Made by a program: the position numbers and the translations under genes | Shown here: positions 10,714 to 35,025 of the stretch, piece after piece | How the letters are laid out: the number at the start of each line of letters is the position of its first letter | Position numbering within the stretch: position 1 is the first letter of the stretch | Source of the DNA: an uncultured Nitrospiraceae bacterium | GTDB lineage: Bacteria > Nitrospirota > Thermodesulfovibrionia > Thermodesulfovibrionales > Dissulfurispiraceae | Length of the DNA stretch: 64,000 nt | Reading direction: 5' to 3' | NCBI GenBank assembly: GCA_963727805.1 | Contig: CAVSHF010000005.1 | Span: 864,001-928,000, forward strand | Notes under the pieces: generated by a model | Told to the model about the DNA's origin: nothing | Database searches by the model: none | The model's input: the letters and a program-made list of their open reading frames with translations, nothing else

Positions 10714-11874
10714 GTGAATCATGCACTCGGACTCCGGGTACTTAGTGAAATAATGGGGTGGGATGATAATCAGGCAAGGACAGAGTTCAGGTGGCTATCC
10801 TTTATGTCTCGATACAAATATGATGGGTATGGAGACTATCTCGCAGGAGCACGTTTTATAGAAAGCCTCGCAACGTGGTTGCAACAATTCAATTTTACAG
10901 ATAGAAGTATTGCTTATGAATACATTAAGAATGATTTGATCTATATTAGTCCTGCTGAAATGCAAAGACTTATTGAAAAGTTGTTTCCTGAAGTTGTTCA
11001 GCGTCATTTAGCAAAGACAGTGGCAACTTATCTTAAAATACCGTCGCACAAGGTATGGGCTAGTAAGGAGACCGTTGAAGAATTTGACTGGCAAAAACGA
11101 AAGACTTTATTCATGAGCTTAAGCGATGGTGCAAGAATTGATATTTTCCGAAGGGTAAATGCTTCGACAATTTCTAATGAGCAGATTGTCGCAGCAACCC
11201 AGATAGATAAAACAAAGTGGGGAAGCTTAATAAAGGACTTAAGAGACGATCTGGATAAACTACGTCCCGGGCAGGGCAGGAATGCCACCGTGTCTCGAAT
11301 TTATCTGATAGATGATTTTACGGCATCAGGAACAACCTTGCTTAGGTATGATGAGAAAGAAGCAAATTATAAAGGCAAACTCGATAGATTTTATAATTCA
11401 ATCGATTTTGCTCAGAACGAATTGAAATCTGATTTTGGAGATATTCTTGATAAAAAATGGGAGCTTATTATCCATCATTATATCGGGACCGAACAGGTAA
11501 CTCATGTCATAAAGAAAAGGTATGAAGAATCACTATCCATAAAGGCAACGTGGAATCCAAGAGTCGACTTCACTTTTGGCATGATTCTCGCCCAAAATAC
11601 AGCATTGGACAAGCAGTCTAATCACCCATTCGTTGAACTATGTAAAAAATATTATGATCCTTCACTCGAAGGCAAGGGCTTGCACGCTGGTGCGAGCGGT
11701 AATCCTGACCTGACTTTTGGCTATGGTCAATGTGCGCTACCTCTCGTTCTCGAACACAATACGCCTAACAATTCACTACCTTTAATGTGGGCTGAGACCA
11801 GAGGGGCAAACGGACGACATGCTATGCGACCACTTTTTCGGCGAAGACAGAGATACAGTGATTTAGCCGAGTGA
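10714..11874 (+). CDS. Phosphoribosyltransferase-like protein (PRTase conflict-effector type)
   Basis: PRPP-binding loop IYLIDDFTASGTT; C-terminal FGYG..HNTPNNSLP..W..PLFRR. Confidence 0.75.
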   Translation: MNHALGLRVLSEIMGWDDNQARTEFRWLSFMSRYKYDGYGDYLAGARFIESLATWLQQFNFTDRSIAYEYIKNDLIYISPAEMQRLIEKLFPEVVQRHLAKTVATYLKIPSHKVWASKETVEEFDWQKRKTLFMSLSDGARIDIFRRVNASTISNEQIVAATQIDKTKWGSLIKDLRDDLDKLRPGQGRNATVSRIYLIDDFTASGTTLLRYDEKEANYKGKLDRFYNSIDFAQNELKSDFGDILDKKWELIIHHYIGTEQVTHVIKKRYEESLSIKATWNPRVDFTFGMILAQNTALDKQSNHPFVELCKKYYDPSLEGKGLHAGASGNPDLTFGYGQCALPLVLEHNTPNNSLPLMWAETRGANGRHAMRPLFRRRQRYSDLAE

Positions 11875-11880
11875 CAGAAT

Positions 11881-13821: not shown

Positions 13822-13823
13822 CC

Positions 13824-14921
13824 ATGGCCATTCCGTCTTGGCATAAGTCTATTGACCATTATGATAAAGATGTTAGCATTTTCTATGTACTTCACTTCTC
13901 GGAAGCACATAGAAAATGCCTGCTTATTGCAGGAGCCGGGTTCGACCCAAGGACAACTGTCCTCGCAAGAGAACTTTCGGCTACGCTAGGAAATCGATTG
14001 GAAGCCCTGTTTATAAGGGAAGAGCGTCCAAACCCAGATACTACACTTGTTGAGCGGGCTGAAAGAAACTTAAGTTCCCTTCAGCAGATGTGCCCAATTA
14101 ATCGGGTTCTCAGCATTGCTGTATTTTCTGATGATAATGCTGTTGTTGGAGGCATTAATGCAGTTTCTAACATAGTGAACGTCGACTTGGCATCCTATAC
14201 AGATATAATTATAGATTTCAGTGCGCTATCGATAGGCATCAGTTTTCCGGTGGTCAAGTATATTTACGATAGCCTTCGGAAGGATGGAACCAATACCAAT
14301 ATTCATTTGGCGGCTGTTTCCAATCCCGAATTGGATTCATTAATATCGTCTGTTCCAAATGATCGAGTAACAGAGGTGCGTGGATTCTCTCGAATTGATA
14401 AACTTTATGGAGAGGTCGAAAAAGCAAAACTTTGGCTTCCTCAATTGTCAGGAGGCAGGCACGAGACTCTAAGAATAATATTTGATGATGTTAAGCCTCA
14501 CGACTGCTGCCCAATTTTACCTTTCCCTTCCGATGACGCAAAGAAAGGCGATAACTTGGCGGCCAACTTTATATCAGAACTGGAAAATGAATGGAATGTT
14601 GATACAAGGAATTTTGTGTATGCTGATGAACGAAATCCGTTAGATATCTACAGAACGATTTTACGGATAGATGAGGAACGCAAGCCAGTTTTTGAAAGTT
14701 TCGGAGGTTCCGTTATAATTCTGTCGCCTCTCGGCAGCAAAATGCTTGCTATGGGAGCACTGATTGCTGCTTTAGAAAAACATTTTCCAGTGGTTTACGT
14801 TGAAGCTTTGGAGTATAATGTGGATTGGCATCGCGTAGATGCTATAACTGGAAATGCCTCAATGTCAGCTCACATTTGGTTATATGGTGAAGCCTATTTA
14901 AGAGATATTCGTAATGCCTAA
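13824..14921 (+). CDS. Hypothetical two-Rossmann-domain (CARF-like) protein
   Basis: IAGAGFDPR, IIIDFSAL, ILSPLGSK..A.G motifs reminiscent of CARF folds; translationally coupled to both neighbours. Confidence 0.55.
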   Translation: MAIPSWHKSIDHYDKDVSIFYVLHFSEAHRKCLLIAGAGFDPRTTVLARELSATLGNRLEALFIREERPNPDTTLVERAERNLSSLQQMCPINRVLSIAVFSDDNAVVGGINAVSNIVNVDLASYTDIIIDFSALSIGISFPVVKYIYDSLRKDGTNTNIHLAAVSNPELDSLISSVPNDRVTEVRGFSRIDKLYGEVEKAKLWLPQLSGGRHETLRIIFDDVKPHDCCPILPFPSDDAKKGDNLAANFISELENEWNVDTRNFVYADERNPLDIYRTILRIDEERKPVFESFGGSVIILSPLGSKMLAMGALIAALEKHFPVVYVEALEYNVDWHRVDAITGNASMSAHIWLYGEAYLRDIRNA

Positions 14922-15990
14922 AGATATGAGAAACATTTCCCATAAAAATAAACCGAGAGTGTTTGGCACAGGGCTCTTTGCTCTGGATGTCGTTCTTAGT
15001 GCAGATCCAGCGGAGCCTATTTATTGTTGGGCCGGCGGCACCTGTGGCAATGTTTTGATAATATTGAGTTATCTGGGCTGGAGAGCATCTCCCATCGCAC
15101 GGCTTAACGGGGATCCCTCATCGATACGTGTAAAAGACGATATGTCTCGATGGGATGTGAGCCTTGCTTTTGCTAAGCAGTCTCCGACTGCTACTACACC
15201 TATTATTGCTCAGCAAAACTATCGTGATAAAGGCGGAGATGCGACCCATAAATTTGCTTTTACCTGTCCGATGTGTGGTGCGTCATTACCTTTTTACAAG
15301 GCAGTTCCAAATATTGCAGCGAAGCGCATTGCTGAGCAAATAGAGAATCCTCACGTATTCTTTTTCGATAGAGTATCGGTTAGTGCGCTAACCTTAGCGA
15401 AAAGGTGTAAAGAACTCGGAGCGGTTATTTTCTTTGAACCATCTGCTAAAGGTGACCCCAAGCAATTCTCGGAGGCGGTACAGTTGGCTCATGTCATTAA
15501 GTACTCGCAAGAACGTTTTAGTTTTTTTGTTGACGAGTATAAATCGGCTGGAGAATTGCCCTTCATAGAGATTCAAACGATGGGACGGGAAGGATTAATA
15601 TTTCGTTCAAGTCTGCCTAATGCGAAATCAGAGGAATGGACAAAGCTACCGGCAACGGCTGTAGAACAGGTCGAAGATACGTGTGGTTGCGGTGACTGGA
15701 CCACTGCTGGCCTTATATCGAAATTGTGTGATGTTGAAGGAGTAGAAGGGCTTAAAACAAAGTCTTTGAAAGATATTATGCGTGCTTTGAATTTTGGACA
15801 GGCTCTAGCTTCTTGGAATTGCAGGTTTGTGGGAGCTCGGGGCGGAATGTATCGAGTTGACAGGAGAAGATTTGAAAGAGAAATATCGGAAATTACCAAT
15901 GAGAGTGTCCAAATGACAAGAACGCATACGAAGAAATTATACGATGAGACACCAATGAGAATGATTTGTCCATCCTGCTGCGGAACCTAA
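14914..15990 (+). CDS. PfkB/ribokinase-family kinase with Zn-ribbon-like insert
   Basis: GGTCGNV and DTCGCGD signatures; CPMC insert and C-terminal CPSCC. Confidence 0.85.
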   Translation: MPKDMRNISHKNKPRVFGTGLFALDVVLSADPAEPIYCWAGGTCGNVLIILSYLGWRASPIARLNGDPSSIRVKDDMSRWDVSLAFAKQSPTATTPIIAQQNYRDKGGDATHKFAFTCPMCGASLPFYKAVPNIAAKRIAEQIENPHVFFFDRVSVSALTLAKRCKELGAVIFFEPSAKGDPKQFSEAVQLAHVIKYSQERFSFFVDEYKSAGELPFIEIQTMGREGLIFRSSLPNAKSEEWTKLPATAVEQVEDTCGCGDWTTAGLISKLCDVEGVEGLKTKSLKDIMRALNFGQALASWNCRFVGARGGMYRVDRRRFEREISEITNESVQMTRTHTKKLYDETPMRMICPSCCGT

Positions 15991-16021
15991 TTAAGTGAAA
16001 GGCCCGCAACATTTTAAGATT

Positions 16022-17077
16022 TCAATACCCAATTTCAGCAAGATCGCGAATCGGATTTATTTGTCCTTCCAGATAGTTTCTGAGGACATCCTCTTTTTGT
16101 TCAGTATAGTCTTTCAATATTGAATAAGATGTGATATCTACTGCCTTATAGAACATATCATAGTTACCACTAAGACTGGTTGTCCAAGGGGCGGGATAGG
16201 ACATTTTCGTGTAGATTTCCGAAGATAAAATTGATGCCAGCCATTTACACTGAAAATTATCTTTACCTTTATTCAAGATGTAATCAATATTAAGATCCTC
16301 AGAAAGCTTTCGAGACTTCTTCTTATCGGGCTTTGTCAGGATGACATTGAGAGATTCTATTCCTAGCTCTGCTAATTTCCTGCAAAGGGAAACTAAGCCT
16401 TCATTGAAACCAAAATGAGGATATCCTACGAAATGTTTACCATAAGAGGGACTTTTTTGTTTGACATCGCAAGCATACAATTTATCCTTGTGCTCAATAA
16501 AAAAGTCCACATCATATCTGAATCGGAATAGTTCAGCAAATAATCTGCTTAAAGCGATCTCTTTAATAAGATTAATCTTGGTACGGTTATACTGGATTAA
16601 GACCCTAACAAGCTTCTCCCATCTTTTATTATCTTCCTTTTCTTCCACTGGGGCTTTTTCTTTCCACCATCCACCAGTCAGTTTCTTTTTATTCTTAAGC
16701 CAACGATTATTGATTTCGGGAATATCAGATTGCGATATGGTCAAACAATCAAAGGACTTTTCTGCTTCATTGAAAGAAACTAAAAACACCCTAACTTGTC
16801 TGTTCAGAAAATGCACAAATAGTTTTATATCTAAATCTGTTACTAAGTTATCAGGATTTGATAGCTTATATGCCTCCCCGACACATTGATCCGGAAACCA
16901 CCAATTAGATGAATAAGACAAAGAAGAATCCGATAAAATATCCTTTGCGAATGCCCTTTCAATCAATATTCCTTCTATTCTCTCTACTTTGTTATGTCTG
17001 AATGTGCCAATCAATTTGTTCACATCGTTAAAGTCAATGGATTCAAGAAGCACGTCTTGATTTAACCACTTTGTCAT
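16022..17077 (-). CDS. Putative PD-(D/E)xK nuclease
   Basis: DVDFFI...CDVKQK; homologous to 19845-21341; RBS AGGAGG. Confidence 0.55.
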   Translation of the reverse strand: MTKWLNQDVLLESIDFNDVNKLIGTFRHNKVERIEGILIERAFAKDILSDSSLSYSSNWWFPDQCVGEAYKLSNPDNLVTDLDIKLFVHFLNRQVRVFLVSFNEAEKSFDCLTISQSDIPEINNRWLKNKKKLTGGWWKEKAPVEEKEDNKRWEKLVRVLIQYNRTKINLIKEIALSRLFAELFRFRYDVDFFIEHKDKLYACDVKQKSPSYGKHFVGYPHFGFNEGLVSLCRKLAELGIESLNVILTKPDKKKSRKLSEDLNIDYILNKGKDNFQCKWLASILSSEIYTKMSYPAPWTTSLSGNYDMFYKAVDITSYSILKDYTEQKEDVLRNYLEGQINPIRDLAEIGY

Positions 17078-17395
17078 TATTACCTCCTTCTACCACCAAG
17101 ACATTAGCGGATCACAGTCACGGCTATTCTCATCAGCTTATTTCGTGCGAATATATATTAATCTCTATACACGCACTTCTGAACCTAATTCCATCATAGC
17201 AGTAGCGTATATAATTGGCGAAACTTTTTGTATAGGATATATTCTCATGCATATCACAATTATTAATTGTCCATTGTATCACACCAAGACTGGAAGATAA
17301 ATTATGATGAATACGCCCGTGGCACACGAAATCACAATAAGTGATGAAGATGATTCAGGTTATGAGACAAAATTTTCCGGAGTTCATAATAAATC

Positions 17396-17445
17396 TTGAC
17401 AAAGTGCGATCATCTGGGTAAAATCTGGTATAAATAATACCCAGA
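17396..17445 (+). promoter_or_regulatory. Promoter of MTase with overlapping inverted repeat (candidate autoregulatory operator)
   Basis: TTGACA(17396-17401)-17 bp-TAAAAT; TCTGGGTA(17413-17420)...TACCCAGA(17438-17445). Confidence 0.6.
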
Positions 17446-17452
17446 GGTAATA

Positions 17453-18613
17453 ATGCCGCAAATTCACATTAAGTTGGACAAGGCGACACACGAAAGATTG
17501 AGCAAAAAAGCTCGAGAGTTCAACTTTAGCATCCAGGAATTCGCCGAAAGGGCCCTGTCGCTGGCGGTTGACAACCCGCTTGAAACCATTTTCTCCTCCA
17601 AAAATAATGAAGACAGTAATTCAGAGACTTTGTTTACATTTATCGACCTGTTTGCCGGGATTGGAGGGATACGCTTGGCACTGGAACAGAATAAAGGGAA
17701 ATGTATTTTTTCTTCAGAATGGGACAGGTGGTCACAAAAGACATACTTTGACAACTTCGGAGAAATGCCTGCAGGAGACATTAATGAAGTTCGGTTGAAG
17801 GAGATTCCCGATCATGACATCCTATCAGCTGGATTTCCTTGCCAGCCCTTCTCTATAGCTGGAGTCTCCAAGAAAAAAAGTCTCGGGAAAGAACACGGCT
17901 TCAAGGATAAAACTCAAGGGACACTTTTTTTCAAAGTCGCCGAAATTATCGAGGCCAAGCGACCCAAGGCGTTCCTGCTCGAAAATGTTAAACACCTGAG
18001 AAATCACGACAGGGGGCAGACCTTCGCAATCATCGAGGGTACTCTCCGGGAACTCGGATATACTATTGTCCATGATATAGTCAACGCTGCTCACTATGTC
18101 CCGCAGCACAGGGAAAGGCTTTTTATTGTAGGCTTCAATAGGGATATTTACGGCGAAAAAGTGGACTTTAATTTCCCAGAAATACCCAACGCAAACCCAC
18201 ACCTTGGCTCTATTCTTGAAAAGAGGGTAGATGCCAAATATACGCTGTCGGATAAGCTGTGGAAATATCTTCAGGACTACGCTGAAAAACACCGCCGGAA
18301 AGGAAACGGCTTTGGTTATGGGCTGTTCGGCTCGAAAGATGTGGCACGCACGCTAAGTGCCAGATACCATAAGGACGGGTCAGAAATTCTTATAAAGAAC
18401 GGGAATTTAAATCCACGCAGGCTCACACCGCATGAATGTGCCAGACTCATGGGATTCCCTCACAACTTCAAGATAATGGTATCCGATACGCAGGCATACC
18501 GGCAGTTCGGAAATTCCGTAGTTGTTCCGGTCGTTGCTGCCGTTGCCTCGGAGCTGGTCAAAGCCGCTGGGCTGGGTGCGGCGTCAACCCGACAGTCCGT
18601 ACGGAATGGCTGA
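17453..18613 (+). CDS. dcm: C5-cytosine DNA methyltransferase (Dcm/M.EcoRII-like) with N-terminal ribbon-helix-helix
   Basis: FIDLFAGIGG, GFPCQPFS, ENV, PQHRER, TLSARYHKDGSEIL, RRLTP.EC, QFGNSV. Confidence 0.95.
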   Translation: MPQIHIKLDKATHERLSKKAREFNFSIQEFAERALSLAVDNPLETIFSSKNNEDSNSETLFTFIDLFAGIGGIRLALEQNKGKCIFSSEWDRWSQKTYFDNFGEMPAGDINEVRLKEIPDHDILSAGFPCQPFSIAGVSKKKSLGKEHGFKDKTQGTLFFKVAEIIEAKRPKAFLLENVKHLRNHDRGQTFAIIEGTLRELGYTIVHDIVNAAHYVPQHRERLFIVGFNRDIYGEKVDFNFPEIPNANPHLGSILEKRVDAKYTLSDKLWKYLQDYAEKHRRKGNGFGYGLFGSKDVARTLSARYHKDGSEILIKNGNLNPRRLTPHECARLMGFPHNFKIMVSDTQAYRQFGNSVVVPVVAAVASELVKAAGLGAASTRQSVRNG

Positions 18614-19067
18614 TATTGTCGACACTGCTACCAGAAGCAGGATGATGGCTGGGATCAGAAGCAAGGACACCGGTCCCGAACTTGAAATAAGGAAAAAACT
18701 TTTCGCAAAGAGATTTCGCTACCGCCTTCATGACAGGAGGCTGCCCGGGAAACCGGACATAGTACTCCCCAGATACGGGGCGGTTATCTTCTTCCACGGA
18801 TGTTTCTGGCATGCCCACGATTGTCATCTATTCAGATTGCCTTCTTCCCGCGTTGCTTTCTGGGAGAAGAAACTGCTTCGGAATGCAGAAAAGGACAGGG
18901 AAAGCCGTGACGAACTGAAAGAACTTGGCTGGCGTATCATGACCATATGGGAATGTTCTTTCAGGGGTCCCGGGAAAAAAAGGGATAAAGAGATTGATGC
19001 AATTATCGCAACGGCTGTACAATGGCTGCAATCGGGGAAGAACGATGATATTGAAGTCAGGGGATAA
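18606..19067 (+). CDS. vsr: Very short patch repair endonuclease
   Basis: MADIVD..TRSRMM..I.SKDT.PE, LPGKPD, FFHGCFWH, GWR...IWEC. Confidence 0.95.
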   Translation: MADIVDTATRSRMMAGIRSKDTGPELEIRKKLFAKRFRYRLHDRRLPGKPDIVLPRYGAVIFFHGCFWHAHDCHLFRLPSSRVAFWEKKLLRNAEKDRESRDELKELGWRIMTIWECSFRGPGKKRDKEIDAIIATAVQWLQSGKNDDIEVRG

Positions 19068-19073
19068 ACAGAG

Positions 19074-19829
19074 ATGACTATAAGTTTGTTCGATGTACAC
19101 AGAAAACTGATGCCCTCGCCGACGGAAGTAATAAACGAAGCTATAGAAAGAATACTCGTGCCACCCGATAATACTCCCGTCTATATCAAAAGCAATTTCA
19201 GTAAGCTTGTTGAGGAAATACAGGTTGATGCTTATGAAATATACTTGAAAGCTGAAAATGCTATTGGCCAAGAAACCTTTAAGAAGGCCTTGTCCGACAG
19301 ATGTCCGGAAGATGCAAGCAGGGATGAAGTCATCAAGATTGTCTGTTCGATGTTTCATGAATTCGACAGGTTCTATCTGTCGCTGACGCAGTCCCGCAGA
19401 CCGCGGGCTGGCAGTGCTTTTGAAATAGTACTGAAGACCCTGTTTAAACACATGAAATATCCGTTCGATGAACAACAGGTGATAAACGGCAAGCCTGATT
19501 TTCTTATGCCGAGCAAGAAGCATTACGACAAAAACCCAATGGACTGCATCATATTCACCGCAAAAAGGAGTCTGAGGGAGAGATGGCGTCAAATTGTTAC
19601 CGAGGGCACAAGAGGGCTGGGATTTTATCTTGCCACAATCGATGAGGCTGTTAGCCCCCCTCAGCTGGAGGAAATGTTAAACCACAGGATTTATGTCATT
19701 GTTCCTATCAATATCAAGCAAAAGGTAAAGGTATATGCTGACGCACAGAATGTCATAACCTTTGAGGAGTTTTTCAGACACCATCTGGACCCTGCGGTAG
19801 ACCGATGGAGAGATAAAGGAGTCATATAG
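19074..19829 (+). CDS. Type II restriction endonuclease, EcoRII-C/PspGI/SsoII family (likely CCWGG or CCNGG)
   Basis: SRRPRAGSAFE, KPDF..P, AKRSLRERWRQ; no EcoRII N-terminal effector domain. Confidence 0.9.
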   Translation: MTISLFDVHRKLMPSPTEVINEAIERILVPPDNTPVYIKSNFSKLVEEIQVDAYEIYLKAENAIGQETFKKALSDRCPEDASRDEVIKIVCSMFHEFDRFYLSLTQSRRPRAGSAFEIVLKTLFKHMKYPFDEQQVINGKPDFLMPSKKHYDKNPMDCIIFTAKRSLRERWRQIVTEGTRGLGFYLATIDEAVSPPQLEEMLNHRIYVIVPINIKQKVKVYADAQNVITFEEFFRHHLDPAVDRWRDKGVI

Positions 19830-19844
19830 ACGGCAATTTGCCCA

Positions 19845-21341
19845 TCACCTGAGAATGTTCTTTCTCCTTTTCGCCACTTCGTCCATAATACTTTTATCCC
19901 CATCAATCTTGCCAAAAAGTTTTTCAGCATGATAAGTATTCCCAGTGCCGATTATCATAAATTCTTCCGGGTTAAGCGGTTCTTGTACTCTTCGATAAGA
20001 GTCTCGACCTGAATCCACACCAGATGTTTCAAAACAGTCATCGCTATCTTTTTTACTTCTTCTAATTGTCTCCGTTACAATCTTGCTGGTAATCCATAAC
20101 AAATTATCTGCTAGTTTCTTATCTTGGATTAGAGGGATAGGGGAGAGCTTGTCCCCCTGCCTCGGATCCACCAATATTACATGCAAAAGGGGTTTGTTAT
20201 CCCTGGAAAGCCATTCAATCAGCTTAACAAAAGGGTTAATATCCAGTCCAAACCTATCGTCTGCAGTAGGATATTTTCTTTTAAATTCGACCGGAACAAT
20301 CTCACCCTCGACCTTAATGAAACAATCCAAGTCAGAAGGCTGCCTTGCGAACAAAGGGAATAGCCAGCAATTCATGAAAATTCTACTTATTGCAAGTGAC
20401 TCGATCTCTTCCGGAGGTAGTTTGTCAATCGCTTCAAGCACTGCATTGTCAATTCCAGAATTATCCGGATTCTTAGGTTCAACAGCGTTGCCTAATCCAA
20501 GCTTTTCTTTGACAAAAACATCGATTGGCAAAGCGCGCGATTTGTTCTCGCCGTATAAGATTGCATTATACATCTCTTTGTCAAAGTTGACCCGTGTAAC
20601 GATTGAATTTCGACTCTTAAGATATTTGGCTATTTCATCATCAAAATCATTCCATCTATTGTGATGATGTTCGAGTCTGAACCAATATTTCGGAACCTCG
20701 CCCATCGGTGTTTCCTGAGGGTAGATAACTTCAACCAATAATCTGTTAAGTCTGCGGATTTCTGTCTTCTCACCCGATGTAAGTTCTCGCGATGATTCTC
20801 TCCTCCAACTTTCTGTCTTTTTTACGAGGTCATATATCTGGCATGTTAATAGCAGTTGTTGATTCTTATTTATTATCTTCTCGTATAGACTCGGCAAACT
20901 GATTACTTCATTGAGCCAACTCACGGTATTAATATCAGCGTTTATTTCGCCAATTGCATAGCCTGCATCAGAGATTTTCTGGCACAGTATCCTGATATCT
21001 ATTCTTGGATTTTTAAATTCACGAGAAGAAAATTCGATGACCTTCTTAAATTGGAAAGCCCATCCTTTTGTCATTAATTGTGAAGTTCGACGGCAATATT
21101 CTTCGAGCTGTGATATGAATTTGTACTCAAATATAAAAGCCGGTACGCGTTTCATCCCTTCTGCCATCAGCAACTCTCCGAAGTGCTCTCGATTGGATAT
21201 ATCAAACCGCTTGTTATAGTGAGCACAGCAAATGCTTCGTTGAGTGGCTCTTTTCATTTGTGAAGAAACTTTATTGGAATTTATCAAGTCCTCACACTGA
21301 TCACTCTTGTGTTCTTTGCGAAACTTATCCAGCTTATTCAT
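19845..21341 (-). CDS. Putative PD-(D/E)xK nuclease
   Basis: SDLDCFI...VEFKRKYP; homologous to 16022-17077. Confidence 0.55.
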   Translation of the reverse strand: MNKLDKFRKEHKSDQCEDLINSNKVSSQMKRATQRSICCAHYNKRFDISNREHFGELLMAEGMKRVPAFIFEYKFISQLEEYCRRTSQLMTKGWAFQFKKVIEFSSREFKNPRIDIRILCQKISDAGYAIGEINADINTVSWLNEVISLPSLYEKIINKNQQLLLTCQIYDLVKKTESWRRESSRELTSGEKTEIRRLNRLLVEVIYPQETPMGEVPKYWFRLEHHHNRWNDFDDEIAKYLKSRNSIVTRVNFDKEMYNAILYGENKSRALPIDVFVKEKLGLGNAVEPKNPDNSGIDNAVLEAIDKLPPEEIESLAISRIFMNCWLFPLFARQPSDLDCFIKVEGEIVPVEFKRKYPTADDRFGLDINPFVKLIEWLSRDNKPLLHVILVDPRQGDKLSPIPLIQDKKLADNLLWITSKIVTETIRRSKKDSDDCFETSGVDSGRDSYRRVQEPLNPEEFMIIGTGNTYHAEKLFGKIDGDKSIMDEVAKRRKNILR

Positions 21342-21376
21342 AAGCCTCCCTATAGTTGTTGCATGACTTGGGATAA

Positions 21377-22294
21377 TTATTGTCCCAGATTTAGAAGGTC
21401 AGGCTGATCCTTTCGTGGGATGTGTTCCTCAACTTTTATGATTTCAAAGGATTTGTTTACGAAAGTATTAGCGATCTTATCGAATGTTCTCTTGAGACGC
21501 AGCTGAACCCGCAGTATATCGCCATTTGCAAACCGTTCACCCGACAGTATTTTATTGGTAAATTCCTTGTCCATAATTTTTGCAGCTATTTTATTACCTT
21601 TGTAAAAGAATTCCCATTTGTGATTTGCATCGAACACGATTTTGAATATATTTAGGAAAACATCTTCAACTATATCCGCTTGAGCATCTTGAGCTATCAT
21701 CACCGCTGTCGGATAGTCACGAAGAAGTAGGCTCATGAATTCTTCACGCTTGACTGCGATTAATGACTCGTTTGTTTTTGATCTCAATTCCACATCATCT
21801 ATCGCAGGGTCATAGTTTAACCTATCGAACTGCCGCTCAAAAGCATTGTGAACCCTGTCATTTTTGTTGTAGATATTGAATGTTCTCTTGTCGACAATGG
21901 TGATATTCCCACTATTGTTCGAGATTTCTATCCCAGTGTCTATTTCTTTATATTTTTCTGGCTTTTCACCCTTGAGGTTCAGTTTGAGCCTAATCAGTTC
22001 AACATAGATTTTGATAATTTCGGGGATACTGAATGCATGTTCGGATAAAACCCCTGCTATGGCACCCTCTATGATGTCAAAAGGAACATCAAAGCTGCCT
22101 GCCTGAAAAGGCTTAATTCTCACTTCAATACTCTTGCCCGTTATTAAATCCCTGTTTATCTCTTCGATTATTTCAGTGAAGGCTAAAAGTGTAGCGGCAA
22201 GGGTCTTGGAGTTGACTTCATTCTCTTTACAGCCGAAATGGAATAGAAAATTATCAGAGGATATCTGTTCAATCATATTCACCTCGGGCAGCAT
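21377..22294 (-). CDS. Hypothetical protein
   Basis: 305-aa ORF; F..GSF motif, beta-rich C-terminus; no catalytic motif recognised. Confidence 0.6.
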   Translation of the reverse strand: MLPEVNMIEQISSDNFLFHFGCKENEVNSKTLAATLLAFTEIIEEINRDLITGKSIEVRIKPFQAGSFDVPFDIIEGAIAGVLSEHAFSIPEIIKIYVELIRLKLNLKGEKPEKYKEIDTGIEISNNSGNITIVDKRTFNIYNKNDRVHNAFERQFDRLNYDPAIDDVELRSKTNESLIAVKREEFMSLLLRDYPTAVMIAQDAQADIVEDVFLNIFKIVFDANHKWEFFYKGNKIAAKIMDKEFTNKILSGERFANGDILRVQLRLKRTFDKIANTFVNKSFEIIKVEEHIPRKDQPDLLNLGQ

Positions 22295-23750: not shown

Positions 23751-23779
23751 TTTACAGCGAACGTTCGTTCGCCTATAAT
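23751..23779 (+). promoter_or_regulatory. Promoter with SOS (LexA) box in the spacer
   Basis: TTTACA-17 bp-TATAAT; the spacer contains GCGAAC-GTTC-GTTCGC (GAAC-N4-GTTC). Confidence 0.8.
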
Positions 23780-23785: not shown

Positions 23786-24379
23786 ATGTCAAAAGCAATT
23801 TCTGCGGATGCACTCCAAGAGAGAGCTGATAAAATTAGAGACTTTTACTCAGCTAGAGATCGAATGCCGAGCTATTCTGAAATTGCCGGGATATTGGGAT
23901 TCAACTCAAAAAGTTCGGTATTCAAACTAATCGCAAAACTTGAGCAGAATAATTATCTTTTACGAGATGAAACCGGCAGGCTTATCCCTGGGCAGATGAA
24001 ACACTCCCTTCGTGTTTTGGGCACCATCGAAGCTGGGTTTCCAAGTCCGGCCGAAGAGGAACTCGCCGATACACTTTCGCTGGATGAATTGCTCATTAAA
24101 AACCCTCAGGCAACATTTCTTCTGAAGGTATCCGGTGATTCCATGTCTGAAGCAGGGATATTGCCTGGTGACATGGTCATAATTGATCGCTCGCTGGAGC
24201 CAAAAGGCGGCGATATAGTAATCGCTGAAGTGGACGGCAATTGGACGATGAAGTATCTCGACAAACAGGGTGACGAAGTAACTTTGGTACCTGCTAATCG
24301 GAAATATAAACCTATTAAACCACTACGAGAGTTAAAGATCGCCGGGGTTGTCACTTCAGTCATACGAAAATATCAATAA
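23786..24379 (+). CDS. lexA: LexA-family repressor (wHTH + S24 peptidase)
   Basis: PSYSEIA..LG..S.S HTH; AG cleavage site (EAGFPS); GDSM Ser and TMK Lys catalytic motifs. Confidence 0.9.
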   Translation: MSKAISADALQERADKIRDFYSARDRMPSYSEIAGILGFNSKSSVFKLIAKLEQNNYLLRDETGRLIPGQMKHSLRVLGTIEAGFPSPAEEELADTLSLDELLIKNPQATFLLKVSGDSMSEAGILPGDMVIIDRSLEPKGGDIVIAEVDGNWTMKYLDKQGDEVTLVPANRKYKPIKPLRELKIAGVVTSVIRKYQ

Positions 24380-24393: not shown

Positions 24394-25410
24394 ATGACCA
24401 AGAAATCGTCACCTAAATTAAAAGACCTAGCTGCGATGAGCCGCAAATGGCCTAAGCTTGGCAAGGCCGAGGCTGATAAGTTAATGCAGGACATTGAAGG
24501 GATGAGGCATCCAGTCTGCCCAGTCTGCGCAGAAAAAGATGCTGTCAGCAGGGACAACTTTGAACTGCCCTCTGAGGTGGACTTTACTGGTGGGGTGCGG
24601 GGTAGATTTTATAAGAAACCATGCAGAAAGGGAAAAAACAATATGGAAATATTATCGGAGAAAATCACAGAAGTATGCGATATGGAAGTCGAGTTTAAAG
24701 GTCGGGAACACCAGGTTCTTTACGAACATGCCAAGAAGAATATGCCCAAGAAGATACTGGACGGTCTTATGATTAGCTGGGCTCTTGGCGATATACTGCG
24801 GAAGAAGTTAAAGGAACTAAGAGACAAAATGAGTCCGCAGGCGCGAGCGGCGGCTGAGAAGAAAACACAACGGATGGAGCTTGCCTTAGATATCACCGAA
24901 AAACTTTTCGGAGAAGCTCCACTTCACTTAAAGAGACCACAGACGGTCGAACTTGCCAAACTCAAGATACGACAACTTCTTGTTCTCGCGCAAGTAAAGG
25001 CCTTACCTATCCCAAAAGACATCAGGGAGAAGATCGTTACTTCGCTTGGGAGCGACAACATTGTGGTGCGCATGGAGAAGAGGTGGCGTATTGTCAGAAC
25101 TGTAATATCTGCTGAAAGGGAAGGTCTTTACGAAGCTGCCGAACACGCAACGGGAGAAGTTTTAACGGATCTGTGTGAGGGCGTTACTCCGCAGAACGGG
25201 CATGGAGAAGTAGATTTCAAGCCTTGCCCTGTAAAGCTAAAGAAAGAAGGGAAGGTATGGATAGCAAGCTGTCCTAGTCTGGATATCCACTCTCGGGGAG
25301 CGACAAAAAACAAGGCTAGGGAAAACCTCGGCGAAGCCATTCGCCTTTTCATAAAAACATGCTCTAGCAGGGGAACCCAAGAAAATGACCAGAAAAGAAA
25401 AGACATATAG
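24394..25410 (+). CDS. Mosaic protein with C-terminal HicB-like domain and several other antitoxin-like segments
   Basis: HicB-type KEGKVWIASCPSLDIHSRGATKNKARENLGEAI; also EVDFTGGVRGRFY, ELRDKMSPQARAAAEKK, LTDLCEGVTPQNGHGEVDF. The start may be the internal ATG at 24643. Confidence 0.6.
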   Translation: MTKKSSPKLKDLAAMSRKWPKLGKAEADKLMQDIEGMRHPVCPVCAEKDAVSRDNFELPSEVDFTGGVRGRFYKKPCRKGKNNMEILSEKITEVCDMEVEFKGREHQVLYEHAKKNMPKKILDGLMISWALGDILRKKLKELRDKMSPQARAAAEKKTQRMELALDITEKLFGEAPLHLKRPQTVELAKLKIRQLLVLAQVKALPIPKDIREKIVTSLGSDNIVVRMEKRWRIVRTVISAEREGLYEAAEHATGEVLTDLCEGVTPQNGHGEVDFKPCPVKLKKEGKVWIASCPSLDIHSRGATKNKARENLGEAIRLFIKTCSSRGTQENDQKRKDI

Positions 25411-25927
25411 GTTTGCCGCCGTAGCGTACAATGTTGATCCTGAACTAGTCGATAACAGGACAGTCCGGATAATGAAGGTCAAGGCCTTACGATCAGATTC
25501 TTCAGAGAAAATCGCAGAGAATCGAATAGAGAAGCTGAATAAGCAGACAGGAGTCACATGGACGCTCCACAGCGAACCTCACAGATTGTCGGACCGCCAG
25601 GAGCGGGCAAATAGAATGGCCAGGTTTACGGGGCGAGCGAACGACGCTATGTGGGCGACTATTATGTCGCATCGGGATTTCTGGGGCGAGATTGAAAAAC
25701 TGACACAGTCAGAGAAATATATGTCTGCGAAAGGTCCTGACCGGGTGCTTATGAAAATCGAGCTGCTGCACGGGAAAGTCGGAAATACGGAATCACTTCG
25801 GGAAGCTGCTGAGTTTGCTAGGTTAGCCGCGTTGGAGACGACGCGAAAGGTGTACCGGCGGAGCACGAAGAAATGCGGACGCCATACCCATGGAATCGAT
25901 GCGCGAAGCAGTGAGGGGGCTGCATAA
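25385..25927 (+). CDS. Hypothetical protein in lexA operon
   Basis: 180-aa ORF overlapping the upstream stop. Confidence 0.5.
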   Translation: MTRKEKTYRFAAVAYNVDPELVDNRTVRIMKVKALRSDSSEKIAENRIEKLNKQTGVTWTLHSEPHRLSDRQERANRMARFTGRANDAMWATIMSHRDFWGEIEKLTQSEKYMSAKGPDRVLMKIELLHGKVGNTESLREAAEFARLAALETTRKVYRRSTKKCGRHTHGIDARSSEGAA

Positions 25928-29694: not shown

Positions 29695-30924
29695 TTAAAT
29701 GCCCCTCTTATCCCCTGTTCCTTTTTTCGTTATCGCCCCGATCCTTACATTGTTTCTGGCAATCAAATCTCTTATGTCCCCTCTCTCATCAAGATGTAGA
29801 AAATTCCCCGTTGTTTTCAAGACACTTTCTCTACAAACTGCTATATGTCGCCTCTTTAGATGTTCGATAACGCTCTGTATCTCATCACAGGTTATAGCGT
29901 AATACTCCATACTGAAGGGATCAGCAATAACCTTATAAAAAAAGGGCAGGTAGAGCAGATCTTTTGTCAATTCTGTCTTTCCTAATTCATTCCTTTCGCA
30001 GAATGTTATAAGATTTTCGGGGAAATTCTCAAAGATCATTATTAATCCCGAAAATAACAGGTACTGAATCTTTAATGGGATATCATAGAAAAGAATATGC
30101 CTCCGCTTAATGACAGGAAAGTCAATTCGTTGTGCCATGGATTCATGGTCCAGTAACCCCTTATCGAATCCCCAGTTGTAGGCAATTTTTATAAACTGCT
30201 GCAAGACACTGTAAAACAGAAATGAATAGGCATAGCGATCGCCGAAACTGAAGATACCAGTCTCCAAAATTTTATATAGCTCTTTTATGGCCCTCAGCCC
30301 ATATGAGTCTGGGTCTACAAACTCTGGTTCCGATTTTGAGAAGTCAAATCCGCACTTATAACAGATCGGGAAATTCTTGTAATAATAACTTCTTCTCAGC
30401 GTTATCGGTATACCGCACTGGGAGCACCGGTCTAATAAGAAGCATCCATGAACAATGCAGGCAGTCGAAAAAGAAAGCCTCCACCTCTTCCTAAAATATC
30501 TGGCGTGGTGCGCTTTTAAGCATAGTGGGCAAAACCTCAGACCGTATCCCTTCGTTATCCTGCTGCGGATAACCAGGGGCTGTATGAATGGCATGCTTGT
30601 GGCTGATATCTCTTCGGCAAGATACCCCTGGTAGGACTTGAGAGTAAGGTTGCAAAGTATTTCATTGCTCAAGAGACACTTGTGCTCAAGCGCCTCCAAA
30701 AGCTTTTGATCAGGTGAAATATCCACATCTCTTGTCCATAAGATATTTTTCCATTCGGGCAGATAAAGGTTTACAAATGTGGCAGGATCCGTCAAGTGAG
30801 CAAGGGCAGTTCTAGTCAGCCATGAACTGAGAAGTTCATCATCCTGAGGAGTAAGACAATATCGGAATTTGTTATTTGCGAAATTGATACGCTTGCTGTC
30901 TATCTTATAAGCAAGAAGGCTCAT
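29695..30924 (-). CDS. tniQ: TniQ family target-selector adaptor
   Basis: P.DDELLSSWL.R.A; FCPLCL..YFR..WR..C..H..L.D.C..C; ATGA overlap with tnsC. Confidence 0.9.
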   Translation of the reverse strand: MSLLAYKIDSKRINFANNKFRYCLTPQDDELLSSWLTRTALAHLTDPATFVNLYLPEWKNILWTRDVDISPDQKLLEALEHKCLLSNEILCNLTLKSYQGYLAEEISATSMPFIQPLVIRSRITKGYGLRFCPLCLKAHHARYFRKRWRLSFSTACIVHGCFLLDRCSQCGIPITLRRSYYYKNFPICYKCGFDFSKSEPEFVDPDSYGLRAIKELYKILETGIFSFGDRYAYSFLFYSVLQQFIKIAYNWGFDKGLLDHESMAQRIDFPVIKRRHILFYDIPLKIQYLLFSGLIMIFENFPENLITFCERNELGKTELTKDLLYLPFFYKVIADPFSMEYYAITCDEIQSVIEHLKRRHIAVCRESVLKTTGNFLHLDERGDIRDLIARNNVRIGAITKKGTGDKRGI

Positions 30925-31826
30925 ACATCTACCAGTGCAAGCCCGCGTCTCTGGGATGGCCTGATAAATCCACACTCCTTTATAATATCCTCTGTTATCT
31001 TCTCGCTACCTGATTTTATCCCAAATATGGCCGCCTCGCTGATGACGCTGATTATCTCCCCAATTAATCCCTCGCTTAAAGCCAAGACCGTCCTGCCTAT
31101 TTTGCTGTTTGTCGATATCTTGGAGAGTTTTCTTAACGGCAACATCATTTCTATGCTTGCAAGCAGGGATGCGTAATCCGCATTGAGTCTCCAAAGCGGG
31201 AGCAACATTGGCCTGAATCTACTACTGATCTGCATGTCGGTACTGGTGGCATTTAGAGCATCCTTTATACCAACAAGGACTATAGGTAGCATCAGCGCAT
31301 TGCTGATATTCTTCAGCGCGTTCATAAAAGCTTTCTGCTTTGGAACCGACCCACTTAAGATATTGTGGATCTCATCTACAATGAGCACCCCAACGCCCAT
31401 ACTTTCAAAATGATATTTTATTTCTGATGCCTTTTTAGTTAAAGAATCGCTCTTTCTGTGGGGAATTAGTATTGTGTCCAGGATTGCATCATAAAGACCG
31501 TTCGGATCAGGAGTGATCGGTGCCTGCACACAAACTACCGACATTGCCGGTTCTTCCCTTCCATCCGTTGGCAGATGTAATCTCTCGAATTTCTTAACCA
31601 GACTCGTTTTGCCGTTATGACTGTCACCAATAATCAAAAGACATGGCATCCTCGATTTCTTCGGTTCATTTAACAGGTCCTCCATCTTCAGGAGAATTAC
31701 TTCAGCCTTTGGATACATAATAAATTTGTCCGCCTTTATATATCGTATCCGTTCGCGGTCAGGGCTCCACAGCAGTTCCTCTGCTTCCGGGCTTAGAACT
31801 ATTTTATCCTGCACAATATCCATCAA
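30921..31826 (-). CDS. tnsC: TnsC/TniB AAA+ ATPase
   Basis: Walker A GDSHNGKT, Walker B LIVDEIH, QISSRF, SEG.IG. Confidence 0.93.
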   Translation of the reverse strand: MMDIVQDKIVLSPEAEELLWSPDRERIRYIKADKFIMYPKAEVILLKMEDLLNEPKKSRMPCLLIIGDSHNGKTSLVKKFERLHLPTDGREEPAMSVVCVQAPITPDPNGLYDAILDTILIPHRKSDSLTKKASEIKYHFESMGVGVLIVDEIHNILSGSVPKQKAFMNALKNISNALMLPIVLVGIKDALNATSTDMQISSRFRPMLLPLWRLNADYASLLASIEMMLPLRKLSKISTNSKIGRTVLALSEGLIGEIISVISEAAIFGIKSGSEKITEDIIKECGFIRPSQRRGLALVDV

Positions 31827-33781
31827 CGTCTTTCATCCTCATCTGACTCTCTGCGAATCACTTCTATGTCTTTGAAAGGCTTGGGGTTTGTAAAAATATC
31901 ATCAACCCGAGCTTCCACCGCTTTCCGAGTGCTTTCAGGTTCGTCCTTAACAGCCTTATGAAGAGGTTCGGCTTTCCCTTCGTCCGTCTGTCCCGTGCCT
32001 TTCCCCATTTTCTCCTTATGGTGCTGTTTGCCGGTACGCTGTCTCCTGACGGCCTTAGTTTTTTTGACGGCTTCATCCTCGATTTTCTTCAGTTCCGCAT
32101 TTGCCTTGAAAATATCGTACTCATTGTAATCTTCCATGTTCTTATCTTTGAGATATTTCTGGCTCTTTCTTAGGTCCCATATCGATATCGGAGGGAAGGC
32201 AACGTTTCTGTAAGGAATCTCAAAATACTCCTTCAGATCAGGAGCATAAAAATACAAAATGCTTATATCATACGGATTATACTTGAATATGTATTTCGTC
32301 CTTTTCTTGCCGGGCGTTTCCATTTCACTATATTTTCTGAGGACATCGCTATAATAATGTATGTGTTCCCATACCACATTGGCCCTCTGGATAGTCCGCT
32401 CTATAGATGGGAAAAGAGAGATTCTCAACTTGCGTGCCTCTTCTCCCTGGATTATTTCCGGAAGCCCGGTACCGGGTGTAGTTTCGTCCCCGAAGATACC
32501 CATCTCATATTTCTTGTACGGCATCATATAACCTATGCCTGAGTGAGGACTCTTATGGTATTTGTTGACGATAAGTTGCGTAGCCCATTTTTCAGTTTCT
32601 TTTATCGTCATACAGGCCGTTGCCTCCGAATCGTATTCTCCTTTGGCCTGCGGATTCGAGAATGTCGTCCCGGGAAGAGCATGCACTTCATTGTTTAAAG
32701 TCTCAATAAACCTCTCGATGTGGCCACCGTATTTTGGTTGTCGGCGAGGCCTGAACTTTACCTCCAAATTATTATCTTCACAAAATCTCTTCAGATCTTT
32801 TCCTCTGTACCAGCTGGCATTGTCGGTATATATGATGATATTTTTTGTCAATCCCCATACGCTCCACTCTCCCTCGACACCTACTCTAGCCAAAACTTCC
32901 TGTTTCGGCATAGCTCCCATATAAATGCATTGTCCGATCGTGAAAAAACTCGGGTGGTCCACTGAAAAATCAAACCCATATACCGACCTGCTAAAAACAT
33001 CTTCAGCAACAACTGCATATGCTTTTCCGATGGATTGTCTGTATAGTTCATCGACAATCAAGAGATCAAGCGGCGTCTCATCTATTTCAATAACATCCAG
33101 TGGATGTTCGACAATAAAAGAGCCAACTATCGGATCGTAAATGGTCCTGGCTTTGGCAGCTCCTTCTGTACGCTTCATGATTTCTCTCTTTGATATCTCA
33201 CCTATTCTGTTTTTGATAGTATTTTTGTGAGGAGCCTTTAATTTCGCATTTTTGCACTTTACCTTTACGTCTTCCTGAAGTTTCTTAAGCCTCAGTCTTT
33301 TCCCCTTCTGTAAATATTCCTCGATAGTTTCGGCCACGACGACATCAACTGCCGGATCTATTCTGTGGGTACCCTTTCCTCCTCTTTTGTTATAGTTCGG
33401 GGCTAGGGAGCTCAACTGCCCTGTTGCTTCATATCTTTTTATCCAGTCATATAAAGTAACATCAGTTAGACCAAATGCCTCTGCTCTTGCTATAACCTCT
33501 TTTTTTGTCCTGTCAGACCTCAGAAGAGGCTTTATTATCTCGTATCTTTGCTTCGCTATTTCCCAGTGCTCTTCCTCAATGTGCTCTGCAGGTTCCACTT
33601 TGTTATTTTCGGCCGGTGCGCTCGCCGGGGTCATCCTGAGCTGTAAGATGGGGTAGAGCCCTGTCTCGCCGCTTTCCGGGTCTCTCAGGAGAACTTCCTT
33701 GAAATTGACTGCGTTGATGACCTCGTGCTTCTTGTCACCTATGTAAACGATGCTCCCTTTGGATAACGATAATCCTTTCAT
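31823..33781 (-). CDS. tnsB: TnsB/TniA DDE transposase
   Basis: EIDETP, DVFSR, YTDN, GHIER; Mu-transposase-like C-terminal region; ATGA overlap with tnsA. Confidence 0.95.
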   Translation of the reverse strand: MKGLSLSKGSIVYIGDKKHEVINAVNFKEVLLRDPESGETGLYPILQLRMTPASAPAENNKVEPAEHIEEEHWEIAKQRYEIIKPLLRSDRTKKEVIARAEAFGLTDVTLYDWIKRYEATGQLSSLAPNYNKRGGKGTHRIDPAVDVVVAETIEEYLQKGKRLRLKKLQEDVKVKCKNAKLKAPHKNTIKNRIGEISKREIMKRTEGAAKARTIYDPIVGSFIVEHPLDVIEIDETPLDLLIVDELYRQSIGKAYAVVAEDVFSRSVYGFDFSVDHPSFFTIGQCIYMGAMPKQEVLARVGVEGEWSVWGLTKNIIIYTDNASWYRGKDLKRFCEDNNLEVKFRPRRQPKYGGHIERFIETLNNEVHALPGTTFSNPQAKGEYDSEATACMTIKETEKWATQLIVNKYHKSPHSGIGYMMPYKKYEMGIFGDETTPGTGLPEIIQGEEARKLRISLFPSIERTIQRANVVWEHIHYYSDVLRKYSEMETPGKKRTKYIFKYNPYDISILYFYAPDLKEYFEIPYRNVAFPPISIWDLRKSQKYLKDKNMEDYNEYDIFKANAELKKIEDEAVKKTKAVRRQRTGKQHHKEKMGKGTGQTDEGKAEPLHKAVKDEPESTRKAVEARVDDIFTNPKPFKDIEVIRRESDEDERR

Positions 33782-34425
33782 CGGTTTGCCTTCAAAATTG
33801 TGCTGTTGGTTAAAGGCTTGTTCAGGTCTGTCACCAGGATCTTTGTCCAGACAAGATGCCAGATCGAAGGGAGTATCCACGCACGCTCAAGCCGGTCTTT
33901 CGCTATGCCATCGAGAATATCCGATACACTCATGCCATTTCCATCAAGATTAATAAGTATCCGGTCTTTATACGATCCGAGAAGTTTTGGCGCTTCTCTG
34001 TATCCGTAAAGAAAATTAAGATTATCGAGGCGCTGGCCTCTAATATCGGTGTCGAGGACCACCTTGAAGTCCATACCATTAGCTGCGGCGTATTCCTCAC
34101 ATGTCGCAAACTTGAGCTTTAACAGAGGAGCCTTCTCCGGATCCAGGAGGTCCTTCTCGGATTTGACTTCCATGAGAAGCGGCTTTCTGCCAGTTTCCGG
34201 TTTGTAATATATAAGGCAATCCGGATAATAAGGACTGCTCGGCCTTCTCGGATTCGGCACTTCAACCTGTTGAGCCACGTATCTTTCTATCTCATCCTCA
34301 AACTCAAGCGTCTGATAAAAATCCCGTTCTACAGGAGACTCGTAATCCACGTGTCCGCCGTTTTTCATACTGTAAAAGTAGCCCGTCGGCACTCTGTTGC
34401 CAGGTGGTATTTTCCTGATCTTCAT
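33778..34425 (-). CDS. tnsA: TnsA endonuclease
   Basis: YESPVERD...LEF, YYPD, EVK motifs. Confidence 0.92.
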   Translation of the reverse strand: MKIRKIPPGNRVPTGYFYSMKNGGHVDYESPVERDFYQTLEFEDEIERYVAQQVEVPNPRRPSSPYYPDCLIYYKPETGRKPLLMEVKSEKDLLDPEKAPLLKLKFATCEEYAAANGMDFKVVLDTDIRGQRLDNLNFLYGYREAPKLLGSYKDRILINLDGNGMSVSDILDGIAKDRLERAWILPSIWHLVWTKILVTDLNKPLTNSTILKANR

Positions 34426-34469
34426 GAGTAAATTATACTTTGTCCGGAGTCCATTTGCAACTTTTGTAA

Positions 34470-34665
34470 ATTAGTTAATCTATTTATTGTATTATTGTAA
34501 TTGGTTAAGCTATATTATGTTAAAGTTAAGTTATTTATTGTCTCTTTCTGTTTTTTTGAAAACGAGACCATATTTTGTCGTATCTTATTGATTTAAGGTG
34601 ATATAAAGATGTGTTATGGGAGGCAGAGCGATAAAATTAAGTTAAGCTATCTTGTGGGAATGACA
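34470..34665 (-). repeat. Transposon end: terminal TGTCATT plus four TnsB-binding-type repeats
   Basis: Minus strand: CCCACAAGATAGCTTAACTTAA (34637-34658), GACAATAAATAACTTAACTTTA (34521-34542), AACATAATATAGCTTAACCAAT (34500-34521), TACAATAAATAGATTAACTAAT (34470-34491). Confidence 0.85.
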
Positions 34666-35025
34666 ACATGATGCACCGTCATGCTGCTCACGATAAGATC
34701 GAAGGCGCCAGTCAAACTGACTCCCTTATCGAAATTTACAAATTCTGTATACACATTTGCTAAACCCCGTCGCGCAACTTTATCATCCACCACACTCAGC
34801 ATGCCCTTCGAACTATCGACGCCGATAATACATCGTACATAGGGCTTCAGCCGGAGCGTCACAAGACCTGTTCCACAGCCGAAATCGAGAATATCCATAT
34901 TCTTGGCGGGCTTGACGATCCTGATTATTGCATCGGCAATATCATTTGCAAGTTTGATTCTCTCCGGATTCAGGTCCCCCCTGCGCAGCTTCAATATCGA
35001 AATTTCTCCGCTCTTCTGCATTCAA
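34666..35025 (-). pseudogene. Class I SAM-dependent methyltransferase, truncated by transposon and frameshifted near start
   Basis: ILDFGCGTG and FDLIVSSMTVHHV, then runs straight into the transposon end; the RBS-TTG frame (NAEERRNFDIEAAQ) shifts at a G6 run near 34,976-34,981. Confidence 0.8.

Follow-up and report, generated by a model that had tools for sequence, protein, structure and literature searches.

Here we describe a gene whose product is assembled from pieces of several unrelated antitoxin families. It lies behind a lexA-like gene in the window, by which we mean the whole 64,000-nucleotide stretch of DNA analysed (uncultured Nitrospiraceae bacterium, assembly GCA_963727805.1, contig CAVSHF010000005.1, positions 864,001 to 928,000). 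The 338 amino acids of the protein form a chain of seven segments, five of which match natural type II antitoxins that adjoin toxins: Phd/VapB (with VapC), BrnA (BrnT), a HigA-type protein (Gp49/HigB), MazE (MazF) and HicB (HicA). Comparison with natural genes, segment by segment, supports a poly-antitoxin anatomy. We consider it probable that the protein acts as a multivalent sponge for type II toxins of foreign toxin-antitoxin (TA) modules, released when a LexA-type repressor is inactivated. An earlier note, made from the letters alone, had proposed such a protein on the basis of five quoted stretches; all five are present, and each has been traced to natural antitoxins. To that first reading we add a sixth antitoxin-derived segment, which belongs to a Phd/GNAT-fold gene pair, a further domain (segment 3) and the location of the locus inside a Tn7-like transposon. 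The frame and its segments are as follows.

24394..25410, plus strand: poly-antitoxin ORF, 338 aa, single open frame
24418..24498 (aa 9-35), plus strand: segment 1, C-terminal portion of a Phd-type antitoxin that pairs with a VapC/PIN toxin
24532..24615 (aa 47-74), plus strand: segment 2, N-terminal part of BrnA
24643..24816 (aa 84-141), plus strand: segment 3, domain also occurring stand-alone, with a beta-alpha-alpha pattern by eye
24802..24879 (aa 137-162), plus strand: segment 4, N-terminal helix of HTH_37 HigA-type antitoxins
24871..25161 (aa 160-256), plus strand: segment 5, C-terminal domain of a Phd-family protein encoded upstream of a GNAT-fold gene
25162..25218 (aa 257-275), plus strand: segment 6, C-terminal MazF-binding stretch of an AbrB-type MazE, minus the last ~9 residues
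25225..25377 (aa 278-328), plus strand: segment 7, HicB-like N-terminal domain

The single frame directly after lexA is borne out: it starts 14 nt past the stop of the lexA-like gene, which scores above the TIGR00498 cut-off, and it ends 10 residues past the HicB-like domain. At the base composition found here, a stop-free frame of 338 codons would arise by chance with a probability of about 2e-9. Searches of the whole ORF and of its seven sub-ranges against Pfam and NCBIfam give no family at cut-off, PADLOC makes no call for the protein, and PDB sequence searches return noise only. The nearest donors found for the six antitoxin-derived segments share 41-68% identity with them. Using donor-only profiles against 378 decoys, segments 2, 4, 5, 6 and 7 outscore the best decoy, a comparison that is partly circular since the profiles were built from genes found using the segments.

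The earlier note held only its HicB assignment to be strong. This assignment is upheld by homologue searches and by the HicA neighbourhood, and reaches no Pfam or NCBIfam cut-off. Segment 7 has many stand-alone matches, with a HicA-like neighbour at four of the five loci viewed (PF07927 at two), and is identical to HicA-adjacent proteins at 27 of 50 positions (54%). Judged through these homologues, aa 278-328 would represent the partial RNase H domain of a HicB N-terminus. The segments other than HicB, for which the earlier note had allowed that antitoxin matches might be missing, do match antitoxins. Segment 2 agrees with the BrnA N-terminus at 19 of 28 positions and its donor profile reaches 33.4 bits (best decoy 5.0); both donors, L023 and L024, lie directly after a BrnT-like gene, the L024 pair being identified by Pfam as PF14384 plus PF04365. 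Segment 4 shares 15 of 25 residues with the N-terminus of HTH_37 HigA-type antitoxins (donor profile 22.2 bits, best decoy 5.6), whose N-terminal helix has a toxin-binding role. Its four non-self matches in 301 genomes comprise two remnants and two complete HTH_37 antitoxins; upstream of one of the latter is a Gp49 toxin, and the other is cut by the contig end. Both plasmid matches are XRE genes adjoining RelE/ParE genes. Isolated HigA-type N-terminal helix remnants, without the HTH and near tRNA-like sequence, are seen at L031:1341-1568 and L032:1336-1659, and are possible intermediates of segment capture.

Segment 6 is identical to a MazE C-terminus at 12 of 19 positions, and its donor profile scores 13.5 bits against 3.1 for the best decoy. 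The four non-self matches are without exception C-termini of MazE proteins encoded ahead of a MazF-like frame (Pfam confirms this at L039). Taken singly, their E-values (0.0035-0.009 per genome) are weak, and about three matches would be expected by chance; we assign the segment because the matches are uniformly MazE, not because of any single E-value. In the relatives P0002-P0004 the slot of segment 6 no longer scores as MazE, which indicates that some segments decay into linkers.

The donor link of segment 1 is the weakest of the five and holds only via a profile that includes two relatives. The window copy alone has no match in 300 other genomes and otherwise returns noise. A three-row profile built from three array copies finds seven non-self matches in 301 genomes (E 5e-6 at L062, 4e-5 at L063), the best three being one Phd-type gene, one copy of it broken, directly before a PIN gene. 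These donor pairs carry PF02604 and PF01850, and the Phd-type donors directly upstream of a PIN/VapC gene agree with the segment at 12 of 27 positions; the donor-only profile scores in the relatives P0030 and P0015 only, not in the window copy. Two of the four weaker profile matches were viewed and are unrelated. Segment 3, whose stand-alone relatives are proteins of 56-111 aa, has no Pfam match and no usable Atlas match, and no toxin lies alongside at L022, the one stand-alone locus viewed. It is possibly a dimerisation or DNA-binding unit.

Segment 5, missed at first reading, comes from proteins of 150-220 aa with a Phd N-terminus; PF02604 is found at E<=0.05 in 16 of the 28 proteins scanned and above cut-off in three. 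At all three donor loci the next gene encodes the same protein of 190-200 aa. This partner has no Pfam match. The structural model of the partner has low confidence (pLDDT 56). It looks like a GNAT acetyltransferase (best Foldseek E 0.013; best VIA Z 7.2, rmsd 3.6 A over 124 residues, where a Z under 8 is not decisive), and the nearest Atlas clusters of the partner are unnamed viral ones and one weak GNAT cluster. Viral contigs yielded no relative of the segment 5 core or of its partner, and plasmids none of the partner. TA systems in which a GNAT toxin is paired with another kind of antitoxin are known, and on the modelled fold we regard the Phd-family/GNAT-fold couple as a putative, unreported TA pair. 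The couple, a Phd-family protein with a novel C-domain of ~95 aa followed by the 190-200-aa GNAT-fold gene, stands at L069:2502-3083, L028:8309-8920 and L027:2814-3151. Of six matches from one segment 5 donor search, three fell in HtpG-like genes by chance and were discarded. In a quick tree, 12 of 13 array copies of the segment cluster together; the support (SH-aLRT 89) falls short of the starred level. This clustering suggests a single capture, after which selection likely acted on the segment inside the fusion. Segment 5 is also combined with other blocks in a further set of fusion proteins (P0013/P0164-P0166 and P0060/P0167).

Comparison with donor domains confirms, for the six assigned segments, the proposal that the DNA-binding domains are absent: no kept range enters the Phd, AbrB or RHH domain of its donor, and that of segment 4 is upstream of the HTH proper, overlapping the HTH_37 model by a few residues. 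The available texts place toxin binding in the C-terminus of MazE and VapB (PMC5086665) and in the N-domain of HicB (PMC11594946), and the RHH of BrnA at its C-terminus (PMC11980606). If each segment still binds the toxin of its family, the protein, with the DNA-binding parts of the donors dropped, would neutralise toxins while repressing no TA promoter. Some relatives retain whole HTH or AbrB domains, thus loss of DNA-binding domains is not a rule.

No toxin gene was recognised nearby, as the earlier note had stated: the neighbours are lexA and an ORF without Pfam match, and there is no TA toxin match inside the element. The locus does not show the adjacent cognate toxin of a type II TA system, and with no cognate toxin found in the locus or the host genome it matches an orphan antitoxin in this respect. 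In the host genome G000 (5 contigs, 100% complete by markers) no members of the BrnT, HicA or MazF families were found; outside the 44.7-kb element it has matches to Gp49 (one), PIN (five), ParE (one) and HigB-like (two) toxins. None of nine toxin queries taken from donors of the window segments matches the host at E<=1e-3, and the two matches among 15 toxin queries in all belong to modules of relatives. We consider it unlikely that the same sponge is aimed at the chromosomal TA toxins of the host lineage itself, where it would keep translation going in SOS stress or block abortive responses to the activity of the transposon so that the element can move. Such a role would agree with the occurrence, in genomes of the host's phylum, of donors for six of the seven segments, with the 78% identity between one G003 segment and an antitoxin-like gene that neighbours a PIN gene on the G000 chromosome, and with the PIN, HigB-like, Gp49 and ParE toxins encoded elsewhere in G000. 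However, toxins matching the window's segments were not found in G000, and segment 5 donors were not found in a search of 300 genomes of the phylum and occur in Myxococcota/Deltaproteobacteria and Planctomycetota records.

Homologues of the protein are shuffled mosaics, not one colinear family. A full-length search finds eight relatives of 303-368 aa among 4000 candidates, none spanning >60% of the query, that share blocks in differing order with differing flanks. A cluster-representative search gives 398 matches at E<=0.001, and among the best 150 of these the blocks aa 84-140, 160-256 and 277-331 also occur as separate small proteins. DNA context is available for four loci: the window, G003, L029 and L026. 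In the first three the array follows the lexA paralogue, so the prediction of further lexA-linked ORFs with other segment sets holds for G003 (lexA, ORFs of 135, 444 and 373 aa, conserved downstream ORF) and L029 (lexA, ORFs of 162, 194, 342 and 65 aa, downstream ORF). L026 has a 186-aa ORF and the downstream ORF, with no adjacent lexA of that kind. Among extra modules of the relatives, the C-terminal half of TacA scores above cut-off in two of seven scanned and HigA in three of seven, and the Xre/MbcA/ParS toxin-binding domain does so in L029 and L026. The family comprises about 15 module types, 12 donor-defined and three library-defined. The slot between segments 1 and 3 illustrates the exchange: it holds BrnA in the window and in P0010, a VapB piece in P0015, and is empty in P0030. 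A search of the genome collection with the downstream ORF gives two loci; the array family is rare.

Two stretches of the G003 arrays, searched in 221 genomes each and labelled by eye, also lead to antitoxin-like genes, most of which adjoin toxin-like genes. The first stretch has eight matches in seven genomes, all small antitoxin-like genes, one type standing directly after a PIN-like gene in four of six cases. For the second, 17 of 18 matches were viewed and all are antitoxin-like: eight Phd-type C-termini before VapC-like genes, one C-terminus before a MazF-like gene, and eight HigA-type N-termini, seven of them with a RelE-like gene upstream. At L088:1381-1842 an RHH-type protein, whose type of C-terminus is a cassette in G003 and P0009, is followed by a 67-aa gene; this couple may be another unreported TA pair. 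A domain of ~100 aa (dN/dS 0.13) heads array ORFs at L021:9500-9796 (minus strand) and L026:7135-7500. Next to related arrays, TIR-like and SIR2-like (Thoeris-like) genes are recognised by eye at L029:986-2944 and L021:3557-6963.

The segments are under purifying selection, with dN/dS of about 0.2-0.3 (0.21, 0.25, 0.29, 0.18 and 0.19 for segments 1, 2, 3, 5 and 7; 0.29 pooled for the 338-aa ORF over 442 aligned codons), and therefore the array is not a graveyard. Segment 4 gives 1.13, on a stretch misaligned by a deletion. Of the four objections foreseen in the earlier note, three have been addressed, on antitoxin matches, on the make-up of the homologues and on selection, and none of these refutes its reading. 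The dN/dS values contradict the reading of the ORF as dead TA fragments fused by deletions, functionless, or as an assembly chimera, a reading that is largely refuted and that we hold to be very improbable. In its favour, the joints at 24817-24818 and 25373, where the relatives part from the window, look like deletions, and cut-down antitoxin remnants do occur in nature (L031, L032, L064). Against it stand the long frames of many relatives, open over 303-444 aa, the absence of recognised toxin fragments among the modules, a host genome without a second or source copy of any segment, and the independent contigs that bridge most joints. Of these contigs, all from other studies, X3 bridges lexA and segments 1-3 (about 94% alike), and X2 and X3 bridge segments 5-7; for the segment 3/4 joint at about 24817 there is no bridging contig among those listed, which neither supports nor refutes that joint. 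The residues K-E-L are common to both segments flanking 24817-24818, which suggests that the window ORF is an array shortened by two deletions, the first in frame at K-E-L. The joints in three loci show no convincing repeats, repeat family or att-like sites, and no recombinase lies alongside the arrays at the loci of the window's relatives that were viewed.

The array lies in an operon with the following further elements.

23751..23779, plus strand: promoter-like site TTTACA-17-TATAAT, best promoter match in the region (11/12)
23758-23771, plus strand: 14-bp palindrome [CT]GAAC-N4-GTTC[GA], within the spacer between -35 and -10
23786..24379, plus strand: LexA-family repressor paralogue with wHTH and S24 peptidase parts, heading the operon; PF00717 E 6e-29, TIGR00498 above cut-off
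25385..25927, plus strand: conserved 180-aa ORF closing the array in 4/4 loci; dN/dS 0.33-0.43

The ATG of the repressor gene lies 6 nt beyond the -10 element, and the transcript is therefore likely leaderless. The same layout of promoter and palindrome, with the same spacing, is common to the lexA genes of L029 and G003 and to the host's own lexA-dinB-like pair; upstream of the host's recA the palindrome is not found in exact form. Its core, GAAC-N4-GTTC, serves as a LexA box in other phyla. An operator-like palindrome that overlaps the promoter and recurs at an SOS-type operon of the host points to membership of a LexA regulon. The paralogue, one of two S24 genes found in all in the host genome, is 89-93% identical across three loci, with dN/dS of 0.06-0.15.

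The conserved downstream ORF bears on a further reading, in which the segments are baits or regulators: a decoy for antitoxin-attacking proteases or phage proteins, or a titrator that pulls toxins out of TA complexes and de-represses TA operons, signalling via the downstream ORF. The closing position of this ORF at all four loci, the defence cargo of the elements, and segment 3 together with the HTH/AbrB domains of relatives, which could be regulatory, all fit it. Yet the parts kept are the toxin-binding parts of characterised families, and the downstream ORF has no Pfam match, toxin and effector families included, while its tail in L029 resembles the Xre/MbcA/ParS toxin-binding domain (PF09722 just under cut-off) and is thus antitoxin-like. 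We rate this reading as quite improbable and favour the toxin sponge.

All four loci lie inside or beside Tn7-like transposons. The window contains one end of its element.

29695..34425, minus strand: tniQ, tnsC/tniB, tnsB and tnsA (PF06527, PF05621 and PF08722/PF08721 above cut-off; tnsB weaker)
34430..34670, no strand: end of the transposon (last base 34665); binding-site-like motifs recur here, and the 5-bp target duplication lies at 34666-34670

The element measures 44.7 kb (G000:C5:853,950-898,665), has inverted ends, the other one (853,950) lying beyond the window, and sits in a SAM-methyltransferase gene. With tnsA/B/C and tniQ, terminal inverted repeats and a 5-bp target duplication, the array qualifies as Tn7-like cargo. 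G003 carries the same element type in the same gene (TnsA 87%, TnsB 83%), and L029 and L026 adjoin Tn7-like genes of other families (TnsB 24-26%). The class I SAM-methyltransferase gene thus holds two related elements, of 44.7 and ~90 kb (window 34666-35021 and G000:C5:853,674-853,949; G003:C1:~958,100 and ~1,047,900), and is likely a dedicated TniQ attachment site. Defence-type cargo fills window positions 8085-22294, with a PRTase-like cluster (8759-15990), a PDC-S42-like gene (21377-22294), a restriction-modification cluster of type II methyltransferase, Vsr and restriction enzyme (17453-19829), and two long ORFs (16022-17077 and 19845-21341). At the element's left end (G000:C5:854,377-861,036), long ORFs encode 524 and 1401 aa; by eye, one of them contains YD/RHS-like repeats. 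A small gene there is possibly immunity-like. Elsewhere in the window, near-identical heterodisulfide-reductase-like gene pairs (201 + 291 aa, by eye) at 56418-57959 and 59085-60626 reflect either a duplication or an assembly artefact.

In the proposed mechanism, the LexA-type repressor would hold the operon off at the palindrome, and DNA damage or incoming single-stranded DNA would induce it; conjugation is known to induce SOS. The host and the transposon would then survive the loss of, or attack by, plasmids and other elements that bear TA modules. The array would grow by in-frame capture of antitoxin gene pieces and be trimmed by in-frame deletions. An anti-abortive-infection version is less likely than this anti-addiction one because the carrier transposon itself bears defence genes. 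The main weakness of the toxin sponge is the usually narrow specificity of antitoxins, set beside donor identities of just 41-68% and a segment 6 of 19 residues that is shortened. The available text of PMC10305079 calls anti-addiction "rather modest", cross-talk rare and type II antitoxins usually specific, and that of PMC7354431 likewise describes antitoxin specificity as usually narrow.

More broadly, and with some reservation, we lean towards the view that Tn7-like transposons carry an updatable antidote library: SOS-controlled polyproteins that capture, fuse and reshuffle antitoxin segments of the community, giving broad immunity to addiction modules. If this is true, the arrays represent a dedicated, evolved counter-weapon against TA addiction and a protein-level acquired immunity built from sub-gene cassettes. 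Whether orphan antitoxins have an anti-addiction role is debated; the arrays would be direct evidence that they do, and the role becomes testable with one gene and a panel of toxins. They would also mark, for about 15 antitoxin types, the minimal toxin-binding peptides that occur in nature, and would serve as bait for new TA families, with unassigned cassettes pointing to undiscovered ones, of which the Phd/GNAT-fold pair is a candidate. A natural multivalent antitoxin could serve as a laboratory tool for toxin cloning and plasmid curing.

Panacea is one domain family, each member of which is paired with its own adjacent toxin, whereas the array combines many domains within one orphan protein. 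The two are alike in that the Panacea or hyperpromiscuous antitoxin domains also tie an antitoxin theme to many toxin folds (PMC10440598, available text). Polyvalent proteins of phages and conjugative elements likewise join unrelated conflict domains in one polypeptide of variable architecture; in the available text, their "antitoxin" mentions concern enzyme domains, not chains of antitoxin segments (PMC5512222). Phage antitoxin mimics, like the proposed antidote, are carried by mobile elements and directed against TA toxins. T4 Dmd covers two such toxins, RnlA and LsoA (PMC7354431), and orphan DarG-like enzymes occur in phages (PMC11825919, PMC11481870); unlike the array, these mimics, as described in the available texts, are single domains with one or two targets and reside on phages.

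Orphan antitoxins provide the anti-addiction model, with chromosomal CcdA against CcdB of the F plasmid: an antitoxin without its own toxin, proposed to counter the toxins of invading elements (PMC7354431). The known cases in the available text of that source are single whole antitoxins of one family, whereas the array joins many unrelated families in frame, shuffled, behind a LexA paralogue on a transposon. In the literature covered, which leaves out most subscription papers and all supplements, no fused multi-family antitoxin was found. Closest in logic are AID and rAID-1, in which orphan T6SS immunity genes form variable arrays; these, too, are orphan antidotes that have diverse origins and reside on mobile elements (10.1101/471110). 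In the available text, AID arrays consist of whole genes against injected effectors, and rAID-1 is associated with a recombinase and cassette repeats (10.1101/471110); the array here, in contrast, would set sub-gene segments in one frame against intracellular type II toxins and falls outside AID/rAID. The architecture is real, with a likely, predicted function. In its predicted action the array resembles an anti-addiction orphan antitoxin and in its organisation an acquired immunity array, and it is a member of neither as described.
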